Counted from the first letter of the stretch, positions 5,793-40,186 are shown. The stretch: 40,186 bases of DNA from a virus (IMGVR_UViG_3300042906_000531), one strand, 5' to 3'. The notes: a model not told the origin generated them from the letters alone. Numbers and translations: made by a program.

Positions 5793-6305
5793 ATGGCTGC
5801 AAAGATTCTACCAATAGAAACGCTGCAAAGGTTGTTTCGCTACGATCCAGAGTCAGGAAATATTTACTGGATCGTAGTAGGTAAAGGAAAGACAAAAAAG
5901 AAGCCTGCTGGCACCGTGGTTCAGGCTGGCTATATAGGCATTCTTATTGACGGCAAGCGATACTATGCACATAGGATAGCGTGGGCTTTACATCACGGCA
6001 GGCATCCAGAGCTTCATCTAGATCACATTAACGGCATCAAGACTGACAATCGCATTGCCAATCTTAGAGAAGCTAACGATATGCAGAATGCTAGGAACTC
6101 AAAAAAGCCCGTCAACAATACTAGCGGTTACACCGGCGTGTCATACTGTAAGTTAACAAATAAATGGCGGGTTTTAATTAAAGTCAATAGAAAGTCAATT
6201 TCTTTTGGACGGCACGCATGTATTGAAGATGCTGTTAAAGCAAGAAAAGAGGCTGAGATAAGATACTTTGGCGAATGGAGAAAACAAGATGAAAATATGC
6301 GTTAA
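5793..6305 (+). CDS. HNH homing endonuclease with AP2 DNA-binding domain
   Basis: YAHRIAWALHHGRHPELHLDHINGIKTDNRIANLREA (HNH_3-type motif), followed by SGYTGVSY...KWRVLIKVNRKSISFGRH...AVKARKEAEIRYFGE (AP2-type). GAGGA lies upstream of the ATG. Confidence 0.9.
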   Translation: MAAKILPIETLQRLFRYDPESGNIYWIVVGKGKTKKKPAGTVVQAGYIGILIDGKRYYAHRIAWALHHGRHPELHLDHINGIKTDNRIANLREANDMQNARNSKKPVNNTSGYTGVSYCKLTNKWRVLIKVNRKSISFGRHACIEDAVKARKEAEIRYFGEWRKQDENMR

Positions 6306-7350
6306 CGCAATATCAAAAAACGAAGCTCAGTTTGTAAAGCGTTTTTACGAGTCGGCCAAAAATGCCGACTTAATCATTCTTGCTGACACAGGCTCAACAG
6401 ATGGAACCGCTGATCTTGCTAGAGAGTGCGGTATTACTGTTTACGACATCTCAATCATCCCGTGGCGTTTTGACCTAGCAAGAAACGCTGCTCTAGCTTT
6501 AGTGCCTGCCGACGTTGATGTAATCGTCTCTCTTGATCTTGATGAGGTTCTTGAGCCCGGATGGCGCGAGGAAATAGAAAGAGTCTGGACTCCAGAGACT
6601 ACAAGACTTAGATATAAATTCGACTGGGGTCAAGGCATTTGCTTTTACTACGAAAAGATCTTCGCAAAGAAGGGCTACAGGTTCCACCATAGTATTCACG
6701 AATACCCTAGACCCGATCTCCGCATCAAAGAAGTCTATGCCCAAACAGACATGCTTCTTGTTTCTCATCATCCCGATCCTACTAAGTCACGAGGGCAGTA
6801 TCTAGACCTGCTCAGGATGGCCGTTAAAGAGGATCCTAGGTGCCCTAGAAACGCTTTCTACTTCGCCCGTGAGCTTACCTTCTATCATCTCTGGGATGAG
6901 GCTATAGACGCTCTCAAGACGTATCTGAACATGCCAGAAGCAACGTGGCCGAACGAACGATGTTATGCAATGAGACTGTTAGGCAAGGCCTATGACCACA
7001 AACTCAACGGTTGGGAAGCTCTGAAGTGGTTTCGGATGTCCATAGCCGAAGCTCCGGGAACTCGAGAGCCGTGGGTGGACGCTGCGATGTCCTACTACAC
7101 GAAGTCGATGTGGCGAGAGTGTTATCACGCAGCGACGATGGCTTTAGAGATCAAGAACAAAGAGCTTGTCTATACTTGTGACCCCGAGGTCTGGGGATTC
7201 AAGCCACATGACTTAGCAGCGATTTCTGCTTACAATTTAGGCTACACAGACGAAGCCATACGACACGGAGCCGAGGCAGTCAGACTGTCTCCTAATGATG
7301 AACGGCTGATTAGGAATCTCGACTACTATGGAAAGTCAAAATCTGATTAA
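6289..7350 (+). CDS. Family-2-like glycosyltransferase fused to TPR-like C-terminal region
   Basis: The start is taken at ATG 6289 (MKICVNAISKNE...), with GGAG about 8 nt upstream. ...LADTGSTDGT...PWRFDLARNAAL...VSLDLDEVL (DxD) fits the GT-A/GT2 N-terminal pattern. The C-terminal half is helical and TPR-like. It overlaps the HNH gene by 17 nt. Confidence 0.72.
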   Translation: MKICVNAISKNEAQFVKRFYESAKNADLIILADTGSTDGTADLARECGITVYDISIIPWRFDLARNAALALVPADVDVIVSLDLDEVLEPGWREEIERVWTPETTRLRYKFDWGQGICFYYEKIFAKKGYRFHHSIHEYPRPDLRIKEVYAQTDMLLVSHHPDPTKSRGQYLDLLRMAVKEDPRCPRNAFYFARELTFYHLWDEAIDALKTYLNMPEATWPNERCYAMRLLGKAYDHKLNGWEALKWFRMSIAEAPGTREPWVDAAMSYYTKSMWRECYHAATMALEIKNKELVYTCDPEVWGFKPHDLAAISAYNLGYTDEAIRHGAEAVRLSPNDERLIRNLDYYGKSKSD

Positions 7351-11901: not shown

Positions 11902-12013
11902 TTTAGACTGATACAGTTGTAATCGCAAGGGATACCCCGACGGGGGGAAAAGCGGACTCATCACCCGCCTGCCCTTTGCTCCTTCAGTGATGACTACCTT
12001 GATGGAGGTTCGC

Positions 12014-17065: not shown

Positions 17066-17380
17066 ATGAGCAACACAATCAACATCAACGGAATCGACTA
17101 CATCCCCGCAGCAGATGCTGTACCCCGCATCACCGGCAACCGCGCCGTGGTGGTCGTGGATCGAGGCTGGATTTTTGCAGGTGATGTCACCCGTCAGAAC
17201 GGCCGCATCCGCCTCGACCGCGCGGTGCATGTATTCCGGTGGGAATCCATCGGGTTCGATGGCGTAATTGCAACCCCCAAGAGCAGCAGAGTGACGCTCA
17301 AGCCTATGCCCAACGGCGTGGACTTGCCCGAGGGCGCAGAGATTTTCTGCGTACCGGTTAACGACCAGTGGGGTCTGTGA
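17066..17380 (+). CDS. Hypothetical protein (104 aa)
   Basis: AAGGAG RBS 8 nt upstream of the ATG. No family recognised. Confidence 0.75.
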   Translation: MSNTININGIDYIPAADAVPRITGNRAVVVVDRGWIFAGDVTRQNGRIRLDRAVHVFRWESIGFDGVIATPKSSRVTLKPMPNGVDLPEGAEIFCVPVNDQWGL

Positions 17381-17679
17381 TGTTCCGGCTTATCGGCAAC
17401 GGCAACGGCAACGGCTACGGCTACGGCTACGGCTGCGGCAACGGCTGCGGCTACGGCGACGGCGACGGCTACGGCGACGGCAACGGCTGCGGCTACGGCG
17501 ACGGCGACGGCAACGGCTACGGCAACGGCAACGGCTACGGCAACGGCTACGGCTGCGGCTACGGCAACGGCTACGGCAACGGCTACGGCAACGGCAACGG
17601 CTACGGCTACGGCGACGGCGACGGCACTGTTAGCGGCAATCCTCGCAGGGTGCGCGGCATCAAGCAGGAGGAAGTATGA
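17380..17679 (+). CDS. Gly-X dipeptide-repeat protein (99 aa; X = Asn/Tyr/Asp/Cys)
   Basis: ATG 17380 overlaps the upstream stop (TGATG) and its own stop overlaps the next start (ATGA). Translation is MFRLI-(GN/GY/GD/GC)x~38-GTVSGNPRRVRGIKQEEV. Confidence 0.7.
   Translation: MFRLIGNGNGNGYGYGYGCGNGCGYGDGDGYGDGNGCGYGDGDGNGYGNGNGYGNGYGCGYGNGYGNGYGNGNGYGYGDGDGTVSGNPRRVRGIKQEEV
17395..17625. repeat. Imperfect hexanucleotide tandem array (GGC-NAC/TGC), about 38.5 units
   Basis: Read directly. Every odd codon is GGC, and every even codon is AAC, TAC, GAC or TGC. Confidence 0.97.
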
Positions 17680-19354: not shown

Positions 19355-19756
19355 ATGAAAAAGCATTTTCTGGAAGCACTGCGATCAGAGAAGCCCGCTA
19401 AGTCCCCGGGCGAGTTCATTATGTGCTTGCTTCACGGTGTCACTAACGCACACATCCTGCACCTACAGTCGAAGTCGTATGCCGAGCACAAGGCTCTAGG
19501 ACATTTCTACGATGACCTCGGTGATCTAGTAGATTCAGTGGTCGAGCAGTATCAAGGTCTGGAAGCTAAGATCCTTAACTACCCTGTCGAGTATCGAGCA
19601 CCAGAACAAACAGCGATAGCCGAGCTAGAGTACATGCTGGAATACGTTAGGGTTTACCGAAGCTCGATGGGTGATGACTCAGCCATCCAGAACAGTGTGG
19701 ACGAGATCGTTGCGCTCATGCAGTCAACACTCTACAAACTCAGATTCCTTAAGTAA
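19355..19756 (+). CDS. Ferritin/Dps-like four-helix-bundle protein (family assignment tentative)
   Basis: MKKHFLEAL...NAHILHLQSKSYAEHKALGHFYDDLGDLVDSVVEQYQG resembles Dps-like phage proteins. It is the first ATG after the terminator. Confidence 0.6.
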   Translation: MKKHFLEALRSEKPAKSPGEFIMCLLHGVTNAHILHLQSKSYAEHKALGHFYDDLGDLVDSVVEQYQGLEAKILNYPVEYRAPEQTAIAELEYMLEYVRVYRSSMGDDSAIQNSVDEIVALMQSTLYKLRFLK

Positions 19757-20142
19757 TGCCGAGAACCCCAAAGCAAACAACATGTCGAGAACTCGGTTGT
19801 AATAATCCAAAGGTCAACAACTCTACATTTTGCAGCCAACACGGCGGTGCCAACAGCGAGGACCGCAAGACATTCAACAGGATGTACAACTCTAAGCAGT
19901 GGAAGCAATTCAGACAGATTCAGCTATCTAAACACCCGATCTGCGCTAGGTGTCAAAGTCTAGGAAAGATCGCACCAGCCCATCATGTAGACCACATATT
20001 CCCGCACAGGATGGACAGAGAAAAGTGGATGGGCAACAAATTCCAAAGCCTCTGTCATGAGTGCCACTCTATCAAGACAGGCTTAGAGAGAAAGGGCGAG
20101 ATACACGATTATATGGAGCAAAAGGTCTACGAGCTAACGTAA
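19756..20142 (+). CDS. HNH endonuclease, terminase-associated (HK97 gp74-like)
   Basis: HPICARCQSLGKIAPAHHVDHIFPH...FQSLCHECHSIKTGLERKG. Sits in the usual end-of-genome position upstream of the terminase genes. Confidence 0.85.
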   Translation: MPRTPKQTTCRELGCNNPKVNNSTFCSQHGGANSEDRKTFNRMYNSKQWKQFRQIQLSKHPICARCQSLGKIAPAHHVDHIFPHRMDREKWMGNKFQSLCHECHSIKTGLERKGEIHDYMEQKVYELT

Positions 20143-20268
20143 TTTTTTTTCTGTCGCGCCAAAAAAAATCGGGACCGGCAGCTGCCCAAATTCCGAAACC
20201 AATTTCAAAACAAAATCGCCAGAATTTTTTTTCAAAAATTTTTTTTAAGCAGCTGGGGTTTGACTTGA

Positions 20269-20333
20269 AACGGACAGACGGTCGATTTACGGTGATGGAA
20301 GGAGCCAGCGGCAGCCAGACACCGACGGACGGC
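20269..20333. repeat. Left cluster of short direct-repeat motifs shared with 20421..20433 and 22623..22814
   Basis: AACGGACAGACGG is at 20269..20281 and again at 20421..20433. ACGGTCGATT is at 20278..20287. CCGACGGACGGC is at 20322..20333. Confidence 0.9.
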
Positions 20334-20493
20334 AGCCGACGCCGCTAGTCGGGGGACCGACGGCGGAACGGTGAGCGATCGGCGGTTTTTGGGCGTTGAA
20401 AAGCATAAACGGCACCATAGAACGGACAGACGGCGGTTTTCAGGCCTACCCGGAAAACAACGGGCAAGCCCCCCAAAAAGACGACAAAAGCCC

Positions 20494-20715
20494 CTAGACC
20501 GGGGGATCAGATGCGAGCGCATAGGCGAGGGCCTGAGCTTCAGTCTGAAAAACCGCGACGGCAGGCACGGGCTCGCCCTCAATAATCCATTGCGCGACCC
20601 ATTGCCCGCGAGTATTGACGTATAGGCGAACTGCGCCCTCAATCCGATTGATAAGCATAAAAACCCCACAAAAAAGCACAGCAAGCCCGCTAAGGAAAAC
20701 CCAAAGCAAGCGCAC
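20494..20715 (-). CDS. Possible small membrane-anchored protein (73 aa from GTG, or 54 aa from internal ATG)
   Basis: The hydrophobic N-terminus LLWVFLSGLAVLFCGVFMLI is followed by a plausible soluble segment. RBS evidence is poor. Confidence 0.3.
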   Translation of the reverse strand: MRLLWVFLSGLAVLFCGVFMLINRIEGAVRLYVNTRGQWVAQWIIEGEPVPAVAVFQTEAQALAYALASDPPV

Positions 20716-20738
20716 GCCTTCGGTTAGCCCGAAAGCAC

Positions 20739-20765
20739 AAAAGCCCCTAGCCCTACGGCTAAGGG
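20739..20765 (-). terminator. Hairpin with downstream U-rich tract on the minus strand (third stacked terminator-like element)
   Basis: Minus strand: CCC-U-UAGCC-GUAG-GGCUA-GGG, then GCUUUUGUGCUUU. An 8-bp stem with one bulge. Confidence 0.4.
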
Positions 20766-20767
20766 TG

Positions 20768-20788
20768 AAAAAAAAGCCCCTAAGGGCT
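20768..20788 (-). terminator. Rho-independent terminator (minus strand)
   Basis: Minus strand: AGCCC-UUAG-GGGCU, followed by U7. Confidence 0.7.
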
Positions 20789-20793
20789 AAAAG

Positions 20794-21027
20794 TTACTTG
20801 ATAGACCAGCCAAAAGAACCCGCAAGCCCTTTAGATCTAAGCAAGTCTGATTGAGCATAAGTACAAGGCCTGAGCACAAAAGACTGCAAGCCGGTTTTCC
20901 TATTTGAACAACAGAAAACTGCGATCAGCTTGCGCGGTTTTTTCTGATCAGCCATTGTGTGAAAGCCCACAGCATTTGCAGGCAGGGTTTTGAAAACGCT
21001 CTCAAGGCGCATTCGGATTACATTCAT
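20794..21027 (-). CDS. Doubtful ORF (77 aa) between two minus-strand terminators
   Basis: GGAG lies 8 nt upstream of the ATG, but the composition (R/K/C-rich) is not convincing. It could instead be an untranslated transcript. Confidence 0.25.
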   Translation of the reverse strand: MNVIRMRLESVFKTLPANAVGFHTMADQKKPRKLIAVFCCSNRKTGLQSFVLRPCTYAQSDLLRSKGLAGSFGWSIK

Positions 21028-21044
21028 GATGAAAACTCCAAAGC

Positions 21045-21066
21045 AAAAAAAAAGCCCCGAAGGGCT
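21045..21066 (-). terminator. Rho-independent terminator (minus strand) after gene 21072..21242
   Basis: Minus strand: AGCCC-UUCG-GGGCU, followed by U8. It begins 5 nt after the stop codon. Confidence 0.8.
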
Positions 21067-21071
21067 AGCAA

Positions 21072-21242
21072 TCAGTAAATCGCAAGCTCGTCGGGCTTTG
21101 CTGGTATTTGATCTTTTAGATCGGCGTATGACAAGTAGCCCGCATCAATAGCCATTAGATCCAGTGCTTCGGATTCGCACGATGCGACATAAGACCCCAG
21201 ATTTTGCCCGCTGATAGTATTTACAATAGTAAAAATTTTCAT
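21072..21242 (-). CDS. Small hypothetical protein (56 aa)
   Basis: The start is taken at ATG 21242, preceded by GAGGATCAT. MKIFTIVNTISGQNLGSYVASCESEALDLMAIDAGYLSYADLKDQIPAKPDELAIY. The longer ORF-track start at 21314 lacks an RBS. Confidence 0.65.
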   Translation of the reverse strand: MKIFTIVNTISGQNLGSYVASCESEALDLMAIDAGYLSYADLKDQIPAKPDELAIY

Positions 21243-21329
21243 ATGATCCTCATAAGTTGAAAAACAAAGCGCAGGCAAAGCCCACACCAAAAACAAAAGC
21301 AATGGTCCAATCAAAAAGCTTTTTCACGG

Positions 21330-21482
21330 TTAGCCCCCCATGAGAATTTTCTTCAAAAAAGGAATTGCATAGCCCGTGAGATTAGATAATTCTCTTAAGG
21401 TCATATTGGGATTAGCATCGTATATGCGCTTGATATCGTCGAAAGTTAAACCTGAAATGCTTTTTTTGAGGGTGTAAGCCAT
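21330..21482 (-). CDS. Small HTH-like protein (50 aa), not in the ORF track
   Basis: ATG 21482 lies 8 nt after AAGGAG. MAYTLKKSISGLTFDDIKRIYDANPNMTLRELSNLTGYAIPFLKKILMGG. MTLRELSNLTGYAIPFLKKIL looks like a helix-turn-helix. Confidence 0.6.
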   Translation of the reverse strand: MAYTLKKSISGLTFDDIKRIYDANPNMTLRELSNLTGYAIPFLKKILMGG

Positions 21483-21516
21483 AATTAATGCTCCTTTTAG
21501 GTTTTGGGGTTAGGAT

Positions 21517-22233
21517 CTAGGCGTAATGAGCGGCAGCTTTGCCGTGGGCGAGAATAGCAATCGATACCGATTCAGGCTTAAGGGCCCCATCACATGCGGC
21601 GCAAGTTATGCACTGCCTTTTATTGCCACCCTCGTTGGATGCCGGGCAATAGATTTCCCTATCAAGCTTAGGTGCGGCATTGATAGGGATAACGCGGAAA
21701 GTACGCCATCCCATTGAACGGGCAATGTCTCGGTCTTCGATGGAATCGGCCGATGCCATACAAAGCTCACGATGCGCTTGCGCGAAAGCTTGCTTCCATT
21801 GATGCGAATAACCGGTCCAGTCTAAAGCTTCGGACAATAATTCAATCCAGACATCGTGCGGAATCATTGCTGGATCGCCATAAGCCCCTAACCGGACCTT
21901 TCGGCCGGATAAAAGCTTTACAGCAAGCTCCAAATTGTCCGAATAATCGGGATATGACCCACGAAGAAAAGCTTTGTAAATTGCGCTAACTGACTTGCCC
22001 ACATCAACGTAACAAGTGCGTTTTTGCCCAGCGCTTCCACGATGTACACAATCACCGCATATGCTTACATCGTCGGCCGTCTTAATTGCTTCCATCGGAT
22101 GCATATCTGATCGGATAATGTAAGTCTGAACCATATCCCCAGTTTTTACATTTTTGGACCGAAGAACGGCGATCCCGACGATAGGCGCATTGTCCACAGG
22201 TGAAAACCCACGATAAAAAATAAAGCCCCTCAT
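21517..22233 (-). CDS. Cys-rich protein of unknown function (238 aa)
   Basis: Contains 8 Cys, including ICGDCVH and RQCITCAACDG. Conserved-looking blocks are RLGAYGDPAMIP, WTGYSHQW and GWRTFRV. Stop and start are tightly packed with the neighbouring genes. Confidence 0.8.
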   Translation of the reverse strand: MRGFIFYRGFSPVDNAPIVGIAVLRSKNVKTGDMVQTYIIRSDMHPMEAIKTADDVSICGDCVHRGSAGQKRTCYVDVGKSVSAIYKAFLRGSYPDYSDNLELAVKLLSGRKVRLGAYGDPAMIPHDVWIELLSEALDWTGYSHQWKQAFAQAHRELCMASADSIEDRDIARSMGWRTFRVIPINAAPKLDREIYCPASNEGGNKRQCITCAACDGALKPESVSIAILAHGKAAAHYA

Positions 22234-22235
22234 GA

Positions 22236-22517
22236 TTAAGCCCCCGCCTTGTGCTTAATCCATTTTTGGGCTTGCTGGTGTTTAACCCTAAGCTCTAAAG
22301 CGACTGCTATTAGATCGGCATGCTTTAAAAGTAACTCGGCAAAATCGCTTGCTATTGGATCGCTGTTAGTAGCAAAGCGATCAGCGAATAGGTCATATAT
22401 ATCCATTGCTATAGCAGGGCTTCCGCGATCTAAATCAAGCCCAACAAAAAGCTCGTGATCTATCACGGCATTTAGCACCACCTCTGTGGCGAATACAGTC
22501 TTTTCAATTACGTTCAT
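22236..22517 (-). CDS. Acidic hypothetical protein (93 aa), first gene of the minus-strand cassette
   Basis: ATG preceded by AAGGAAAAG. Stops 2 nt before the next gene. Confidence 0.7.
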   Translation of the reverse strand: MNVIEKTVFATEVVLNAVIDHELFVGLDLDRGSPAIAMDIYDLFADRFATNSDPIASDFAELLLKHADLIAVALELRVKHQQAQKWIKHKAGA

Positions 22518-22622
22518 TTGGCTTTTCCTTTTAGTGCATCGGAATTGATGCGTAGGGCGATCCTAGCCCCATTTCAGGCCATACCGATCGCCATCCCCCA
22601 TTTATTTAATCGCTAGCCGATG

Positions 22623-22814
22623 GACGGTCGATTACCGCACCATTAACGGCACCAGAACCCCCCAAAACCCCCAAAAACTGATGCGCCACTGGCACAGTCA
22701 GCGCTAACCCATTGATTTTCAACGATAACCGGCCATTTCCGTTATAGCTTGCGACAATCGGCGGTATTTCGGGGTATCAACGGCCTCAACGGTCGATTTG
22801 GGCCGACGGACGGC
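22623..22814. repeat. Right cluster of the short direct-repeat motifs
   Basis: ACGGTCGATT is at 22624..22633 and 22789..22798. CCGACGGACGGC is at 22803..22814. All are in the same orientation as the left cluster. Confidence 0.9.
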
Positions 22815-22966
22815 GAAAATGACTTAAAAATTGTAGCGGTCAGGGAAGGGCAAGCGCGCGCTCGACTTTCTGTAATACTTATGTATAAGGGGGGCCGACC
22901 AAAAATAGGGAATTCCCCTTGCGTAGCCACGCAAAAAGACGCACATTAGACGCAAAGGAGAGAACT

Positions 22967-23440
22967 ATGGTTGCGAAAATTCCAGTTGAGGTGCATAGGA
23001 TTCACGGAACGAAGGCTAATAAGCCGGGGGTTTTTCTGCCGGAAGAGATCAAGCAGAGGATTCCGTTTGCTGAGTGGGCGAACAACCCGGAGTCGTTCAC
23101 GAGGGAAAAGTTTGTTAAGGAAACGGCGGAGTATTTGTTTAGCGTGTACGGGATAGGATCGGATCAGGACAGGCATACGCTCATGATGCTTGCTGATCAG
23201 TTACAGCTTTACATAGAGGCTCGAGCTGCGATCGCAAAGTACCCGCTGATTGTGGAAACAAATGCTGGCAAGACCTTTGCGCCCAATCCTTACGTCAGCC
23301 TTGCAAACAAGGCTATGGACAATGCCATTAAACTTATGTCTGAGTTAGGGCTGACACCAAAGTCTAGGTTGGCAGCTAATAAGCTCGACGACAACACGAA
23401 AATAAACGACTTCCTGAAAGGGCCTAAGTTCGGAACATGA
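22967..23440 (+). CDS. terS: Terminase small subunit (P27-family-like)
   Basis: ATG 22967 lies 6 nt after AGGAG. ...AEYLFSVYGIGSDQDRHTLMMLADQLQLYIEARAAI...TFAPNPYVSLANKAMDNAIKLMSELGLTPKSRL is typical of P27-type TerS. ATGA-coupled to TerL. Confidence 0.8.
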   Translation: MVAKIPVEVHRIHGTKANKPGVFLPEEIKQRIPFAEWANNPESFTREKFVKETAEYLFSVYGIGSDQDRHTLMMLADQLQLYIEARAAIAKYPLIVETNAGKTFAPNPYVSLANKAMDNAIKLMSELGLTPKSRLAANKLDDNTKINDFLKGPKFGT

Positions 23441-25095
23441 AATTAGAAGATGGTATTGAGTACGCAGTTCGCGTAGCAAAGGGCGATATTAACGCCTGCA
23501 GGAACGTAAGGTTAGCCTGTCAGCGATTCCTGAATCATTTAGAGAACAAGGACTGGGAATGGGTTTTTGATCCGGGCCCTGTCAATCACTTTTTACAGTT
23601 CACGGCGCTATGCAAGCACGTTAAGGGACAGTGGGCAGGCCAGTCAGTCAAGCTAGAGCCTTTCCAGATCTTGATTGTCTGCGCCATCTACGGATTTAGA
23701 AGTAAGAAGGACAGGCAAAAGCGGATGGTGCAGGACGTTATTGTCTACATCCCGAGGAAGGCAGGAAAGTCCACCCTGACAGCGCTTATTGCCTTATACG
23801 AGCTGGGATTCGGCGAGGCCGGTGCTGAAGTTTACACACTAGCGACTAATCGAGATCAGGCCTCAATTGTGTTCACGACTTCTAAGGGCTTCATCGAGAC
23901 AATGCCTAAAGAGCTGTCCAGTATGTTTGTCACTGGAAAGTTTACGATCACGAAGTCGAAAGACAGCCAGAGCATGATGAAAGCTCTCTCCAGAGACACT
24001 AAAAAGACCGGAGACGGGCTCAACCCGTCTTGTACGATTGTTGACGAGGCAAGCCAGATCGTGGACAGGAATGCGATTGAGGTTTTGCATTCAGGGATGG
24101 TATCTCGCCTTAACCCTCTACGGCTATACATCACGACCGCTTCTTTTACCCGCGACACAAAGTTCTTCGAGGACTTTCAGGTGATGGAGCACATCCTCCA
24201 TCAGGACGTACCTGATAACCCGCGGTGGTTTGGGCTTCTTTACTCGCTGGATGCTGGAGACGACTGGAGAGACGAGACGGTATGGGCTAAGGCTAACCCG
24301 ATGCACAATATCTCGGTATCACACGATGCGATCGTTGCAAGATGCGAAGAGGCGAAGATTAAGCCTGCTGCACTTAATGAATTCCTCTGTAAGACACTTA
24401 ATGTTTATGTGTCAGCCGAAACTGCGTGGGTCGATAGGACACACTGGGATGAGTCTGTAGGCGTTACAGGCAGAGATCCTGAGTCGGTATTTATTGGTTT
24501 TGACCTAGCGGCAACGCGAGATTTGAACGCTGTTTGTACGCTTAAGAGATATTCCGAGGACGATTACGAAGCAGAATGGAAGTTTTTTCTGCCTGAAGAT
24601 GGTTTTGATTTACTGCCAACCCACTACAAAGATATTTTCCGGCAGGCTATTAATTCGGGGATTTTGCACATCACTGAAGGTAATGTGATGGACGACCGAG
24701 AGATTTCGGCGTATATTGTCAAGCAAAGTCAAAAATACGATGTAAAAGAAGTCGGATATGACGCTTATAATGCCGCTGCAATAGTGGCAAGACTATACGA
24801 AGCTGGCCTGCCAGTCAAAAAAGTCGGTCAAGGAATGGCGGTGCTTTCTAACCCGTCAAAACATGTCGAGCGACTTATCTTAGGCCACAAAATCAAACAC
24901 GATGGCAACCCATTTCTAGGACATCAACTGGGCAATTGCGAAGTGTTTACAGACGTTCAAGGAAACATTAAGGTCAAGAAAGCCGGTGTGGATAAACACG
25001 CTAAGGTTGACGGCATAATTGCCTTGATTATTGCGATGCACTGCAGTCTGGACAACCCGATGCCTAATGAATCGTACGGATTCAGAGTCTTTTAG
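23437..25095 (+). CDS. terL: Terminase large subunit (Terminase_1 / HK97-like)
   Basis: 552 aa. The Walker A-like segment is YIPRKAGKSTLTALIALYEL, and the nuclease part has a D-rich C-terminal end (KVDGIIALIIAM). Confidence 0.9.
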   Translation: MKLEDGIEYAVRVAKGDINACRNVRLACQRFLNHLENKDWEWVFDPGPVNHFLQFTALCKHVKGQWAGQSVKLEPFQILIVCAIYGFRSKKDRQKRMVQDVIVYIPRKAGKSTLTALIALYELGFGEAGAEVYTLATNRDQASIVFTTSKGFIETMPKELSSMFVTGKFTITKSKDSQSMMKALSRDTKKTGDGLNPSCTIVDEASQIVDRNAIEVLHSGMVSRLNPLRLYITTASFTRDTKFFEDFQVMEHILHQDVPDNPRWFGLLYSLDAGDDWRDETVWAKANPMHNISVSHDAIVARCEEAKIKPAALNEFLCKTLNVYVSAETAWVDRTHWDESVGVTGRDPESVFIGFDLAATRDLNAVCTLKRYSEDDYEAEWKFFLPEDGFDLLPTHYKDIFRQAINSGILHITEGNVMDDREISAYIVKQSQKYDVKEVGYDAYNAAAIVARLYEAGLPVKKVGQGMAVLSNPSKHVERLILGHKIKHDGNPFLGHQLGNCEVFTDVQGNIKVKKAGVDKHAKVDGIIALIIAMHCSLDNPMPNESYGFRVF

Positions 25096-36869: not shown

Positions 36870-39800
36870 ATGCCAGCATCAATTGTCTTAAGCGCAGTTT
36901 ATGGATCAATGGCCGCTGCCGGAGCTGCATTAGGATCTATTGGTCTTGCAGCTGCGACCTTTGCAATCAACTTTGCGGTTTCCTTTGTCGTTACTCGAGC
37001 TTTTGGTAACAAGCCATCGCAGGCTCAGGATATGGGCGCTAGGCAGCAAATGCCTCCTGCTAACAGTAATTCCATCCCTGTCGTTTATGGCAGCGCGTGG
37101 CTAGGCGGAACCTTTGTCGATGCGGTGCTGACGACCGATCAAAAGACGATGTATTACGTCATAGCCATAAGTTCTATATCGTCGGATGCGTCTGCAACCT
37201 TTACTTATGACACGCAAAAGTTTTACTACGGTGATCGCTTAATCACGTTTGATAATGTAGATCAGACTAAAGTAGTATCCCTGACCGATGGTGCAAGTAA
37301 TGTCGATGACAAGATCTCGGGCAATCTGTACATCAGTCTTTACACATCTACGAATGCTGGCGTTATTACCCCTGTAAACGGAACCGCGCCTAATGTAACA
37401 ATGGGCGGATCTGAGATTCCCGCATCTCTTCGCTGGCCTGCATCTGGCCGTCAGATGAACGGATTAGCGTTTGCAATCGTTAAGCTGAATTACAACGCTG
37501 ACGCAGGCACGACAGGCCTACAACCCATAACGTTTTACTGCACACACCTTCCTAAAGGCGGATCTGTTTGTAAGCCCGGAGATGCGTGGTACGACTACAT
37601 GACAGACGAGCGTTACGGCGCAGGCATGACTGGTCTCGTGGATTCTGCAAGCGCGACAGCTCTTAACACTTACTCGGATCAGACCATTACCTATACGCCT
37701 TCTGGAGGCGGATCGGCCACACAAGCCCGATACAGAATTAACGGTGTCATAGACACGGGAAGGCCGGTACTAGATAACGTTGAGAAGATGTTGGAGTGCT
37801 CCGATAGTTGGATGGCTTACAACGCCGCTTCTGGACTTTGGTCGATCATTATCAACAAGGCCGATAGTTCTACATTCTCGTTCAACGATTCAAACTTGAT
37901 CGGTGAGATCAGAGTCTCTGCAATCGACATCAATCAGCAGATCAATCAGATACAAATTGAGTTCCCATCTAAAGACAATCGGGATCAGCCCGATATGGTA
38001 TTTCTTGAGACACCTGCGGGCCTAAGGTATCCCAACGAACCTGATAACAGACAAACCACCAGCCTAGATTTTTGCAACAACTCTGTGCAAGCCCAGTATC
38101 TCGGTAATAGAAGGCTAGAGCAGGCACGAGAAGATCTCATCGTCACCATTACCTCGACATATCCGGGCATACAAGTCGATGCTGGTGATGTGGTTGACAT
38201 TACAAACGCAGACTACGGATGGACAAACAAGCTCTTCCGGGTCATGAAGGTATCCGAGGCTACGGTAGATGACGGGAACTTAGGAGCCACATTAGAACTA
38301 TCTGAATACAACGCTGACGTTTATGACGACTCAAGTATTACAGCATTCGCTCCTGCGCCTAACTCTAGCCTGCCGTCTCCGACTTACTTCTCGAGCCTAA
38401 ATGCTCCGGTCTTAGGCGATCTTGCACCTTCTGCTGCACCTCCGACATTCTCTGCCACTTGCACGATGCCAACTGTAGGCCGAGTCACTACCGTCACATT
38501 GTTCTACACGAGTTCTGCGACTCCTTCTGCAACAGACTGGAAAGTCATCAGCTCTCAAATCCTGAGCAACGGATCGACGTTTGCAAACTTAAGTACCGTT
38601 AAGTTTGAGAATCTGCAAATAGCTGGTGGAACGTGGTACTTTGCTTTTTCTGTTTCCAACGAGTCAGCTAAGAGCGCACTGTCGGCTACGAGTGCAGCAT
38701 TTGTGTGGTCGCCTACAGGAATGGCGGGACCTACGGGGCCTACAGGCAGTCAGGGGCCAACGGGAGATCAGGGCCCTACAGGAAGTCAGGGACCGACCGG
38801 AAGTTCTGGCCCGACAGGCGGATCTGGGCTCATAGGTATTGCCTTTATTAACGCTTATCTTGTTCAGTCACAAACCGCATCCACACCTTCTTTCTCGACA
38901 CCGACATCTGGCTCTGCGGTTCCTGCTGGATGGTCGTCTACGGTTCCCGGCATTTCTATCGGTCAGGTGCTTTGGTATCTACAGGGAAGATACAACGCCA
39001 ACGCAGTGACCGTAGATGGAGTGCCTGCTAATTCAACAGCGTGGACAGGGCCTATAGCTGCCTCTGTGTTTCAGAGCATCCTTTCTGACAACTATAACGG
39101 CCCCATTCCTCCGACATCTTCCAGTTATGGAACGGCTGGTTGGTATCTCGATAAGACCTCTGGTGGCCTATATGCGTCTGCTGCGTATCTCAGAGGAGAG
39201 ATTGCTTCTGGTACTGGATCAGACCGTATCACGATCAACAACTCCAACAATCTTGAGATTCAGGGCTACACGACTTACGGTGGAACGACTCCGTGGTTCT
39301 CGATGGGTGTATCTGGTTACGACACAAAGATCCTGAGTGTCAATGCTGTTAACTACCCTTATGCGGATTGTGCGGTTCAGTTCTTAGGCGGTGCCTCTGG
39401 TCAATTTACACTCAAGGTTCCCAATGGCGCAGGCTCTCCGTTAGTTAAGGGCGCTTACTTCAGTGCATTTGCAGCCGAGGCGCTTGTCGTTGAAAGAACA
39501 TCTTCCCTAACAAACGGAAACGGCTCTACGTTTTCTAATGCCAATGGTTATGCAATCAGGGTTTTGACTGGCGGCATCGCTTCTAATGTTTATTACTTCC
39601 CGAATACCTCAGCAGGCTTCACGCAGATCCAAAACATCCCCAACAACACGACGACCTTTTTGAGAGGCGACGGTTCGTGGGCTTCAGGCATTGCCGGACC
39701 TACGGGGCCGACGGGCCCGCAAGGTATACAAGGCGATCAGGGGATACAAGGAAATCCCGGACCTACTGGCCCGCAGGGTGCTACTGGCCCAGCATCAACG

Positions 39801-40186
39801 GTTCCCGGCCCGACAGGCCCGCAGGGTCCTACCGGCGCAGCGTCTACCGTTCCGGGGCCAACAGGCCCGCAGGGAGCTACAGGTCCGACGGGAGCTACGC
39901 CTTCGCTGCCTGATCCGTGGACAAACTCAATTGCTCTTGCTTCCGGTAAGACGGCCTCACTGAGAGGAACATCCTTTGCAGACAACTCGTGGGTCTTTAC
40001 GAACAGCACCGGTTCCTATGCAACTGGAGCTAACATCGTTCTTTACACGAGCAGTGCCTCACAAACGTGGACATTCAACTCCAACGGTAATGCTTATGCT
40101 GATGCTGGTTCGTGGGTTAACTCTTCAGACAGAAACGTCAAAGAGAACATCCAGAACTACAGTGGTGGACTTCAGAAGATCCTTGC
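36870..40186 (+). CDS. Central tail fibre / host-specificity protein (gpJ / GTA g15-like), 5' part; continues at 1..344 (1177 aa total)
   Basis: ATG 36870. The frame has no stop to the window end, which is why it is missing from the ORF track. The hydrophobic Gly/Ala N-terminus is [45 protein letters not shown] is typical of the Phage-tail_3 host-specificity domain. Collagen-like GPTG blocks lie near 38719..38832 and 39691..39900. Confidence 0.88.
40060..40186. repeat. Right copy of exact 127-nt terminal duplication
   Basis: Identical to nt 1..127. Confidence 0.97.

Follow-up and report, generated by a model that had tools for sequence, protein, structure and literature searches.

An optional, modular leftward gene cassette beside cos in a phage with an HK97-type packaging module, and its associated flanking motif

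Why should 2,827 bp separate the HNH endonuclease gene from terS in this virus (IMGVR_UViG_3300042906_000531), when the same gap measures only 136-213 bp in seven relatives? The whole stretch of DNA analysed here (the window; 40,186 nt) carries in this interval a minus-strand gene block and a set of exact short repeats, both of which are present where a sequence-only reading had placed them. That reading regarded the block as an insertion, perhaps a mobile moron, that had split the packaging locus and possibly also a set of terminase binding sites. We sought to establish what the block contains, whether it is optional, and what its flanking repeats are likely to do (Table 1).

Comparison with relatives reveals that the block is present in some phages and absent from others. 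In genomes whose TerL proteins are 93-94% (L101, L107, L108 and L115) or 88-89% (L158 and L167) identical to that of the window, the HNH gene is followed by approximately 55 bp and then by cos. Because these close relatives lack everything else, the segment from 20115 to 22814 can be designated as accessory. Homology between the window and cassette-less relatives ends at 20111-20114, inside the 3' end of the HNH gene, and resumes at 22815-22844. Eight relatives carry the cassette, seven further relatives hold a different insert of 1.2-1.8 kb in the same interval, and in L118-type relatives the stretch from cos to terS, across cos from the cassette position, encodes a ParB-N6/N4 methylase. The proposal of an insertion is therefore well founded, since HNH, cos and terS are contiguous in close relatives; the cassette is indeed encoded on the opposite strand and closed by predicted terminators of its own, and 'mobile moron' is a fair description of it.

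Table 1. Coordinates of the cassette, its flanks and the neighbouring packaging genes in the window.
Feature	Position (nt)	Strand	Remarks
HNH endonuclease gene, terminase-associated	19756-20142	+	Pfam HNH, phrog_144; final ~30 nt within variable segment
Accessory segment, whole	20115-22814		All cassette genes and both motif arrays; missing in close relatives
A/T-rich element CCAGAATTTTTTTTCAAAAATTTTTTTTAAGCAGCTGGGG, left flank	20219-20258		95% identical in L004 lineage (whole flank 56%)
Left motif array	20271-20446	+	Sites 20271-20294 (strong), 20373-20396 (weak), 20423-20446 (strong)
54-aa acidic protein	20494-20658	-	ATG start supported by L004 homologue
Three stacked terminator-like hairpins	20713-20739, 20744-20765, 20775-20788	-	Predicted, consensus scan; 20775-20788 is a module joint
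77-aa ORF, doubtful as gene	20794-21027	-	GGAG upstream; no family match
Terminator-like hairpin AGCCCTTCGGGGCT plus T run	21053-21066	-	Predicted; ends 238/50/56 module; module joint
56-aa acidic protein, variable cargo	21072-21242	-	ATG start, GAGGA ribosome-binding site
50-aa basic protein, variable cargo	21330-21482	-	AAGGAG ribosome-binding site
238-aa DUF7227-like protein, main cargo	21517-22233	-	phrog_2554; seven invariant Cys
93-aa protein, first gene of leftward unit	22236-22517	-	Narrow distribution: three homologue clusters only
Non-coding leader, cos to first leftward gene	22518-22850	-	333 bp; no credible ORF
Right motif array	22617-22805	+	Sites 22617-22640 (strong), 22752-22775 (weak), 22782-22805 (strong)
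cos-proximal upstream element GAAAATGACTTAAAAA...GGGAAGGG	22815-22850		Common to cassette-less relatives
cos cohesive end CAAGCGCGCG	22851-22860		Putative 10-nt 3' overhang; from contig ends
terS	22967-23440	+	157 aa (as in L009 gene call); Pfam Terminase_4; RBS AAGGAGAG upstream
terL	23437-25095	+	Pfam TerL_ATPase, TerL_nuclease

The position of cos is given by contig ends from many samples. In five samples (L005 and L010-L013), the right-end contigs all stop at 22850, as does an IMG/VR record with an identical end (L016), and one 39.5-kb contig stops at 22864. Among 80 contigs anchored on TerL, 31 start at the equivalent of 22861 (CTCGACTTTCTG and variants). These ends leave a 10-nt gap between them, and the absence of the same 10 nt from both sides fits the trimming of 3' overhangs, from which we infer the polarity of the cohesive end. 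The cos site of HK97 likewise has a 10-nt 3' overhang (PMC11331095). Sequence next to the cut is 88% identical to L004 over 22803-22850. Together, the HNH gene, a Terminase_4-type TerS, TerL and a defined cut constitute a cos packaging module of the HK97 type. The cut lies 106 bp before the terS start codon, which is the ATG at 22967 rather than the TTG at 22919. Thus cos had not been parted from terS by 2.8 kb, as was first supposed; HNH alone is displaced.

Cassette content varies in a modular fashion. In backgrounds that are at least 95% identical, the content takes at least three forms (variants A, B and C), with breakpoints at 20788, 21065, 21507/8 and 22230/1. The joints of these swaps coincide with near-identical terminator hairpins: homology between the window and L009 breaks at 20788 and that with L100 at 21065, and the 22-mers at 20768-20789 and 21046-21067 (repeat family D2) are 95% identical. 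All three variants (A, B and C) retain the 93-aa gene, in place of which the L004 lineage has unrelated 97-aa and 92-aa genes; the description of the 93-aa product as acidic holds only mildly (pI 5.15). The 56-aa gene is replaced in L009-type and L100-type relatives, and the 77-aa ORF is found in variants A and C (94-98% identity in L100 and L176) and not in B. In the L100 variant, a beta-clamp-like protein takes the place of the 238-aa gene, such that the further accessory cargo at this locus, this protein and the ParB-N6/N4 methylase, is DNA-related. The 50-aa ORF is absent from variants B and C. Its helix-turn-helix assignment had been made by eye, and Pfam, PHROG and PDB yield nothing for this ORF; its candidacy as the cassette regulator is excluded because it is missing from variants that retain the motifs. 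The 54-aa gene is the sole cassette gene present in every cassette-bearing relative (72-94% identity by tblastn in L004, L005, L009, L020, L100, L174 and L176), and no other cassette protein invariably accompanies the motif. The 54-aa protein has neither a family match nor a recognisable DNA-binding domain. None of the six cassette ORFs matches a PADLOC profile (E <= 1).

The main cargo does belong to a family that can be named, even though none had been recognised at the outset. The 238-aa protein matches phrog_2554, itself lacking an annotated function, over residues 3-236 (E = 4.9e-73), and its C-terminal 50 residues alone match Pfam DUF7227 (PF23872) with 20 bits (E = 5.6e-4), which falls short of the 27-bit gathering threshold. 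The same weak DUF7227 match is exhibited by 38 of 38 aligned relatives, and on sequence grounds we place the family as a related sister group of Pfam DUF7227. Comprising 3,474 clusters at 50% identity, it is a large, unstudied family of cysteine-rich phage proteins. Residues C59, C62, C74, C196, C208, C211, C214 and H230 are invariant. An AF2 model of the protein has a pLDDT of 96, and this confident model matches no PDB structure; PADLOC, NCBIfam and PDB likewise return no match for the protein. A first model aligned with DUF7227 proteins in BFVD (E = 1e-6 to 4e-4) and faintly with Gp37/Gp68 (DUF5131; E = 0.02) and GP88 (E = 0.12). DUF7227 is the nearest of these families, DUF5131 and GP88 are more distant look-alikes, and all three lack a known function. 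The protein is probably a metal or Fe-S enzyme, although this remains a prediction and the metal binding is putative.

Radical SAM enzymes were considered as relatives of this protein and rejected, since the cysteine pattern is C59-X2-C62-X11-C74 instead of CX3CX2C, no Pfam Radical_SAM match exists, and Foldseek matches to radical SAM proteins have E values of 0.2-0.7. What resemblance there is lies in the topology and in a GDP motif that follows a strand.

Members of this family lie close to genome termini and face inward in many unrelated phages. At 42 of 59 IMG/VR loci, a divergent ORF of 420-620 aa is located no more than 3.2 kb upstream of the homologue. When 47 upstream ORFs were tested (these 42 and five on the + strand), 36 matched phrog_2, a TerL family, and the set spans several distinct families of TerL. 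Among the matches listed, all homologues in Mycobacterium and Gordonia phages are minus-strand genes whose distance from the right end is 0.85-3.6 kb. The homologue is the rightmost gene of Bongo and the fifth gene in the leftward right arm of Che12, where stoperator-like repeats adjoin. In cluster A phages, Pleft at the right end drives early transcription of this arm (PMC5712189). In Caulobacter phage S2B, 1.2 kb separates the homologue from the right terminal repeat, and the T7-like phages S2B and jiawei both carry the gene at the right end. The right end of T7 enters the cell last, and therefore a 'first in' position is not universal for the family.

The flanking repeats are exact and all reside on the + strand: ACGGTCGATT occurs three times (20278, 22624 and 22789), CCGACGGACGGC twice (20322 and 22803) and AACGGACAGACGG twice (20269 and 20421). 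They are parts of an asymmetric site of approximately 20 bp with the core CGGTCGATT (CGG(T/C)(C/G)G(A)TTT in the left array), present three times per flank and on the + strand in six of six cases. The earlier conclusion that these copies are not due to chance stands, whereas the statistic offered for it is naive, since roughly 40-60 different 10-mers with at least three copies are expected by chance in 40 kb. We uphold the conclusion because all copies fall on one strand within 0.7 kb of non-coding DNA, because scanning the 40-kb window with a position-weight matrix reveals no comparable site outside the flanks, and because the L004/L020 lineage, whose flanks are only ~56-59% identical, retains sites on both of them. 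One or two exact copies are located at the left-array equivalent in L004 and L020, and the weak right-hand site has a perfect copy in L004. The motif associates with the cassette: three or four exact copies, all on the + strand, are present in eight of eight cassette-bearing intervals, compared with none of 14 intervals without it. A right array can also exist alone, because L151 retains two degenerate copies between the HNH stop codon and cos without any cassette gene.

Could these arrays instead be recognition sites for TerS or HNH that the arrival of the cassette duplicated or split? The right-array sites share one orientation and precede the cut by 60-230 bp, and in SPP1 and lambda, terminase or accessory sites are found on both sides of the cut. 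However, sites of this kind should co-vary with TerS next to the cut, as for cosB-type recognition, and they do not. No exact copy is found in the seven cassette-less relatives with a 136-213 bp gap, four of which have TerS proteins 85-89% identical and an unchanged cos, whereas a cassette-bearing lineage with a TerS only 66% identical has the motif. Moreover, homology with cassette-less relatives begins just ~35 bp upstream of the cut, half of the motif sites are 2.4-2.6 kb away from cos, and the TerS site of HK97 resides downstream of its cut, at +15 to +29 (PMC11331095). This possibility, also raised by the sequence-only reading, is thus very unlikely, and the motifs are cassette sites rather than split terminase sites. 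We give even less credence to an iteron-type replication origin in the left or both flanks. Three same-orientation sites do adjoin a strongly conserved A/T-rich 40-mer, as in direct repeats beside an unwinding element, and tandem arrays occur between terS and the gene at many other DUF7227 loci. However, origins are not expected to be optional, and relatives in which the proteins of the downstream DUF5856 and HNH genes are up to 91-94% and 77-80% identical lack the whole region; the replication initiator and helicase genes are also 6-8 kb away.

Two other arrangements merit somewhat more attention, although each is improbable. The arrays might be recombination sites of a mobile cassette, at which direct-repeat exchange excises or captures the block in the manner of integron attC sites or T4-type shuffling repeats. 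Direct-orientation repeats on both flanks, their perfect co-occurrence with the cassette, and the resemblance of L151 to a post-deletion state are consistent with such exchange, and cluster A mycobacteriophages lose right-end DNA when stoperators in the same orientation recombine (PMC5712189). However, no recombinase is present in or beside the cassette, the observed joints are terminator hairpins and gene boundaries rather than motifs, the left boundary with cassette-less relatives is inside the HNH gene rather than at a motif, and no collinear duplication between the two flanks is seen. Just as doubtful is a lysogenic-conversion moron, expressed from the prophage to benefit the host (for example by superinfection exclusion or defence) and not early in lytic growth. 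It would accord with the layout typical of morons (opposite strand, own terminators, relatives without the cassette), with DUF7227-like genes in integrated prophages of many phyla, and with homologues in S2B and jiawei that lie in the arm carrying the integrase. Against it, the listed ORFs of at least 300 aa in the window read as tail, glycosyltransferase, helicase and head or packaging proteins (six checked by family), and because no other ORF of this size is listed, no integrase is evident. PADLOC matches are likewise absent, and the equivalent arm in cluster A is early lytic and repressed in lysogens (PMC5712189).

We therefore favour, with moderate confidence, an optional, modular, moron-type cassette at the right genome end that is transcribed leftward and early, carries a cysteine-rich protein that is probably a metal or Fe-S enzyme, uses the motif as an operator or roadblock, and serves an accessory takeover or anti-defence function. 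The cassette occupies the final 2.7 kb of the virion chromosome, abutting cos, and would be transcribed inward from the genome end, beginning in the leader beside cos. This leader has an equal length in the L005 lineage (~335 bp). Neither a sigma-70-like site on its minus strand (a consensus that may not be that of the host) nor a structured RNA signal was found within it, and the cassette promoter must sit there. Lambda-like cos phages inject first the end that was packaged last; if this order, carried over from lambda, applies here, then the cassette would be the first DNA to enter, and its expression would probably be early. It could thus be expressed at once on entry as a host-takeover or anti-defence function. 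The near-identical predicted terminators subdivide the cassette and double as joints for module exchange between close relatives. The motif is a putative asymmetric protein-binding site belonging to the cassette, and its arrays may act as an operator or roadblock that controls the cassette or insulates it from convergent late transcription. As a side effect, the arrays would be direct repeats across which the cassette may be lost.

This arrangement parallels several known systems in part. Morons, reportedly described in lambdoid and HK97-like phages by Juhala et al. in 2000 and by Hendrix and colleagues, are similar in that extra genes with a separate transcription unit and their own (here predicted) terminator lie between genes adjacent in relatives, and in that content varies among near-identical phages. 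Unlike morons, the cassette holds several genes in an internally modular arrangement at the extreme end of the chromosome, its G+C content (0.41-0.51, versus about 0.46-0.50 around it) is not clearly deviant from that of its neighbours, no sigma-70-like promoter was found for it, and no integrase is evident. The Pleft region and stoperators of cluster A phages such as L5 and D29 also combine a leftward unit from the right genome end with asymmetric sites in uniform orientation, between which recombination deletes DNA (PMC5712189), and Che12 links the two systems by carrying both a 238-aa homologue and stoperator-like repeats in its right arm. However, L5 has ~24 sites genome-wide, compared with six here, restricted to two flanks by the position-weight scan; the sequence motif is unrelated, and no repressor gene was identified. 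Repeated promoter/stem-loop cassettes are said by Arbiol et al. (2010) to shuffle genes in T4-type phages. Near-identical short regulatory sequences mark module-exchange joints here also, although they are terminator hairpins rather than early-promoter stem-loops, and in a different phage group. Finally, T7 gene 0.3 (Ocr) and the T5 pre-early region exemplify early genes that enter first. As there, small accessory genes would be placed at the first-entering end and read along the direction of entry, provided that the predicted order and timing are correct; yet no sequence or structural similarity exists, and the main cargo is enzyme-like rather than a DNA mimic.

A bolder interpretation, which we consider fairly unlikely, is that the DUF7227-like proteins represent a new class of metal or Fe-S enzyme that phages of many lineages place at the first-entering end, and that travels in this phage group in a self-contained unit that some factor loops, silences or insulates via the arrays. 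If so, then this enzyme would act on DNA or on host defence in the first moments of infection. The arrays, 2.3 kb apart, would be bound by a factor for which the 54-aa protein, a constant companion of the arrays, is a candidate, and such binding would permit the gain and loss of the unit.

cos was mapped by aligning the window with metagenomic contigs of close relatives. Contigs representing the right end, drawn from five samples and two lineages (loci L005 and L010-L013 of our comparison set), all terminate exactly at 22850 (...GGAAGGG), as does the IMG/VR record L016; one 39.5-kb contig terminates at 22864. Among 80 contigs recovered through their TerL genes, 31 start at window position 22861, with CTCGACTTTCTG or a closely similar sequence. 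Neither left-end nor right-end contigs contain the intervening 10 nt, CAAGCGCGCG (22851-22860), as expected from trimming of a 3ʹ overhang during library preparation, and HK97 cos is known to have a 10-nt 3ʹ overhang (PMC11331095). This puts cos 106 bp ahead of the terS start codon (ATG, 22967), and therefore cos and terS are still adjacent and HNH alone has been displaced, which overturns the sequence-only reading that the cassette separates cos from terS. The cassette makes up the right-hand terminus of the virion chromosome, and its genes are read inward from this terminus. A possible pseudo-cos in its left flank bears a resemblance too weak for scoring.

The four minus-strand ORFs read from the sequence (93, 238, 50 and 56 aa) are all present with ribosome binding site (RBS) support, and two further small ORFs and several terminator-like hairpins accompany them (see table). 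Searches of the cassette proteins against NCBIfam, PADLOC and PDB sequences gave no useful match, a DNA search of GenBank phages found no similarity, no promoter is recognisable for the cassette, and the search for a host found no bacterial genome carrying a relative more than 56% identical.

Coordinates of features in the window and, where a locus is named, in that locus
Feature	Position	Strand	Remarks
93-aa ORF	22236-22517	-	RBS support
238-aa ORF	21517-22233	-	RBS support
50-aa ORF	21330-21482	-	RBS support
56-aa ORF	21072-21242	-	RBS support
77-aa ORF, doubtful	20794-21027	-	extra small ORF
54-aa ORF	20494-20658	-	extra small ORF
Terminator-like hairpins	21053-21066, 20775-20788	-	predicted; at swap joints
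Terminator-like hairpins	20744-20765, 20713-20739	-	predicted
Strong sites	20271, 20423, 22617, 22782	+
Weak sites	20373, 22752	+	22752 copy perfect in L004
A/T-rich 40-mer	20219-20258		beside left array; 95% identical in L004
int-alpA RNA motif (Rfam RF02996)	11925-11993	+	44 bits; gathering score 35.8
CGGCTA tandem repeat	17394-17625		38.7 copies
Putative 103-aa ORF	17368-17679	+	Gly/Tyr/Asn/Asp-rich
beta-1,4-glycosyltransferase gene	6268-7350	+	phrog_13126, E = 1e-98
beta-clamp-like gene (224 aa)	L100 3749-4423	-	variant C
ParB_N-N6/N4 methyltransferase gene	L118 30-1214		between cos and terS
Degenerate motif copies (two)	L151 5335-5440		between HNH stop and cos
Spacer repeat arrays	L033 5536-5884, L044 4966-5104, L071 3855-3967, L092 5220-5422, L093 4782-5156, others		terS to DUF7227-gene spacer
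14-nt repeat, seven copies	L179 2688-4620		Mycobacterium phage Bongo

Comparison of loci containing both HNH and terS establishes that the block is optional, in keeping with its earlier description as an insertion. Seven loci have an HNH-terS gap of 136-213 bp and no cassette, seven hold a different insert of 1.2-1.8 kb in this interval, and eight carry the cassette; in the relative L101, the HNH stop codon is followed by ~55 bp and then by cos. Homology to cassette-less relatives stops at 20111-20114, within the final HNH codons, and restarts at 22815-22844, ~35 bp short of the cut, and therefore both repeat-bearing flanks are part of the accessory segment.

The contents of the segment are themselves exchangeable, with three variants occurring in backgrounds at least 95% identical. 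Variant A is the arrangement of the window. In variant B (L009, L016 and L017), 20789-21507 is replaced by one gene of ~103-112 aa, whereas in variant C (L100 and L176, phages that are elsewhere 95-99% identical) the 238-, 50- and 56-aa genes (21066-22230) are replaced by genes of 89 and 224 aa, the latter encoding a beta-clamp-like protein (Pfam DNA_pol3_beta_2, the DNA polymerase III beta clamp central domain). The swap joints fall at gene boundaries and at two of the terminator hairpins, which sit within 22-mers mutually 95% identical. A distant lineage (L004, L005, L020 and L174), with coding DNA 68-77% identical, retains both flanks together with the 238-aa and 54-aa genes, but here the 93-aa gene gives way to unrelated ones. 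Contigs from another branch of this phage group, represented by L118, start at cos ~1.1 kb further from terL and bear a methyltransferase gene between cos and terS, an arrangement seen in about 20 similar loci (e.g. L119, L123 and L136-L138); accessory genes are therefore accepted on both sides of cos. These exchanges bear on two roles proposed for individual genes. A pairing of the 93-aa and 238-aa proteins is rejected, in that the former has just three homologue clusters, loses its position to unrelated genes in the L004 lineage and is retained in variant C without its presumed partner. The 50-aa ORF is rejected as a regulator acting on the flanking motifs because variants B and C lack it and still have the motifs.

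The three short motifs noticed in the flanks occur exactly where the sequence-only reading placed them, all on the + strand. The statistic then offered for their non-randomness did not stand (chance alone should give about 40-60 different 10-mers with at least three copies in 40 kb), although the signal itself does, by virtue of its confinement, its single orientation and its conservation across lineages. The copies are restricted to 0.7 kb of non-coding DNA, and no comparable site exists elsewhere in the window. The motifs are pieces of one asymmetric site of ~20 bp, with the two-lineage 24-bp consensus GACAGACGGTCGATTTCAGGG. In the L004/L020 lineage, the right flank has three copies and the left flank one or two, even though the flanks are overall just 56-59% identical. 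Exact CGGTCGATT is present in three or four copies, never inverted, in all eight cassette-bearing intervals and in none of 14 others. Two degenerate copies in L151, a locus from which the cassette genes are absent, look like either a deletion remnant or a precursor or pre-insertion state.

Several explanations for these arrays were weighed. The proposal that they are terminase binding sites is refuted by their distribution: L101-type relatives, whose TerS proteins are 85-89% identical, have no copies, whereas L020, with a TerS only 66% identical, has four. Moreover, HK97 TerS has its site downstream of the cut, at +15 to +29 (PMC11331095). The sites are therefore the cassette's own rather than part of the packaging signal. 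Chi-like end-protection sites would be compatible with the uniform orientation, but the conserved site is ~20 bp long and cassette-less relatives do without it. Inspection by eye for a -35 element of leftward promoters found no correctly spaced -10 element. The two flanks are not a single collinear duplication, since they share short matches only, in scrambled order, and their best local alignment is barely above that of shuffled sequences. Structured RNA was also sought in the flanks, with no Rfam match and folding z-scores of -1.2, -0.8 and +0.4. The nearest known analogue of the arrays is the 'stoperators' of cluster A mycobacteriophages, same-orientation repressor sites that cluster at the right-end early promoter and between which recombination causes DNA deletion (PMC5712189).

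The main cargo, the 238-aa protein, matches phrog_2554 (E = 5e-73) and, below threshold, Pfam DUF7227. Its family is almost entirely phage-borne; it forms 3,474 clusters at the 50% identity level, and a word-indexed search gives 1,960 matches. In 116 diverse members, invariant residues include C59, C62, C74, C196, C208, C211, C214 and H230, and a GDP motif after a strand is nearly invariant. An AlphaFold model built from this alignment (pLDDT 96, pTM 0.92) and an earlier, weaker model found no significant relative when compared with the PDB by Foldseek (best for the pLDDT-96 model, E = 0.02, TM 0.24). The only matches of the weaker model were viral DUF7227 proteins, with faint ones to Gp37/Gp68, GP88 and radical SAM proteins. 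Membership of the radical SAM group is not supported. A Pfam scan of N-terminally extended homologues revealed no fused domain, and a literature search returned no paper mentioning DUF7227 or DUF5131. The protein is plausibly a metal or Fe-S enzyme.

The common feature of this family is a terminus-adjacent position, facing inward, which recurs in siphoviruses, podoviruses and actinophages. An opposite-strand ORF of 420-620 aa lies no more than 3.2 kb upstream in 42 of the 59 IMG/VR loci with sufficient upstream sequence, and 36 of the 47 upstream ORFs tested (these 42 plus five on the + strand) match the TerL family phrog_2, the upstream TerL ORFs spanning several distinct TerL families. In every Mycobacterium and Gordonia phage listed, the gene is on the - strand, at a distance of 0.85-3.6 kb from the right end. 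In Bongo, where its product is gp153, no gene lies further right; in Che12, where its product is gp97, it comes fifth in the leftward right arm. In Caulobacter phage S2B, the homologue is 1.2 kb from the right terminal repeat. In alphaproteobacterial prophages, the gene comes after a TerL-like gene on the same strand, as expected if it were the first gene past a T7-like genome terminus. Many unrelated phages bearing DUF7227 also have, between terS and this gene, a spacer with arrays of 4-10 short repeats, direct or tandem; these arrays may mark genome termini or control regions. Downstream of the Bongo gene, ACACACGGAGAAGG is repeated in or beside the gaps separating successive small genes and resembles a recurring signal for translation or transcription.

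Other features were observed elsewhere in the window. The int-alpA RNA motif is in the region of divergent early control and immediately precedes a 158-aa ORF without a family match. The CGGCTA hexamer array, within the early region, is spanned by the putative 103-aa ORF and, on the opposite strand, by a putative (Ala-Val)n ORF. Across 36900-40186 and 1-2879, no ORF of at least 90 aa is listed at 36.9-39.7 kb, and collagen-like repeats of 18, 27 and 54 nt are found at both window ends. Together these suggest that one long tail-fibre ORF crosses the boundary, in which case the window would be a full contig of ~40.2 kb closed into a circle. The glycosyltransferase gene (category moron/host takeover), located between the tail genes and the endolysin gene, is a second accessory gene of this genome.

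The finding stands, and in sharper definition than the sequence alone allowed. The comparisons show a modular unit that is optional, is bounded by terminators, lies on the opposite strand at the right cos end and carries conserved site arrays of its own. By type, it is an accessory cassette of the moron kind whose sites form a stoperator-like set. In lambda, the right end is packaged last and enters the cell first. If the same holds here, the cassette would be the first DNA in the cell and would be read in the direction of entry, and its cargo could act at once in host takeover or anti-defence. A DNA-directed role would fit both the beta-clamp-like protein of variant C and the ParB-methylase gene beyond cos. 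The arrays would most simply be operators or roadblocks that control the unit and might shield it from convergent rightward transcription leaving HNH, with recombination across them a by-product. The first candidate for the array-binding factor is the 54-aa protein, because no other cassette gene is found together with the arrays in every case. No DNA-binding domain is recognisable in this protein.

With empty, half-empty and three differently filled states found across near-identical genomes, the locus illustrates clearly, in nature, how accessory genes can be gained and exchanged at the chromosome end of cos phages while packaging is undisturbed. The more interesting parts are the factor that binds the arrays and the DUF7227-like family with its terminal position. 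The broader value of the finding lies in this family, which is very large, has seven invariant cysteines and a confidently predicted structure, and lacks a solved relative. Its positional rule yields a concrete, testable hypothesis of immediate-early action, for which isolates are on hand, among them mycobacteriophages Che12 and Bongo and Caulobacter phage S2B.
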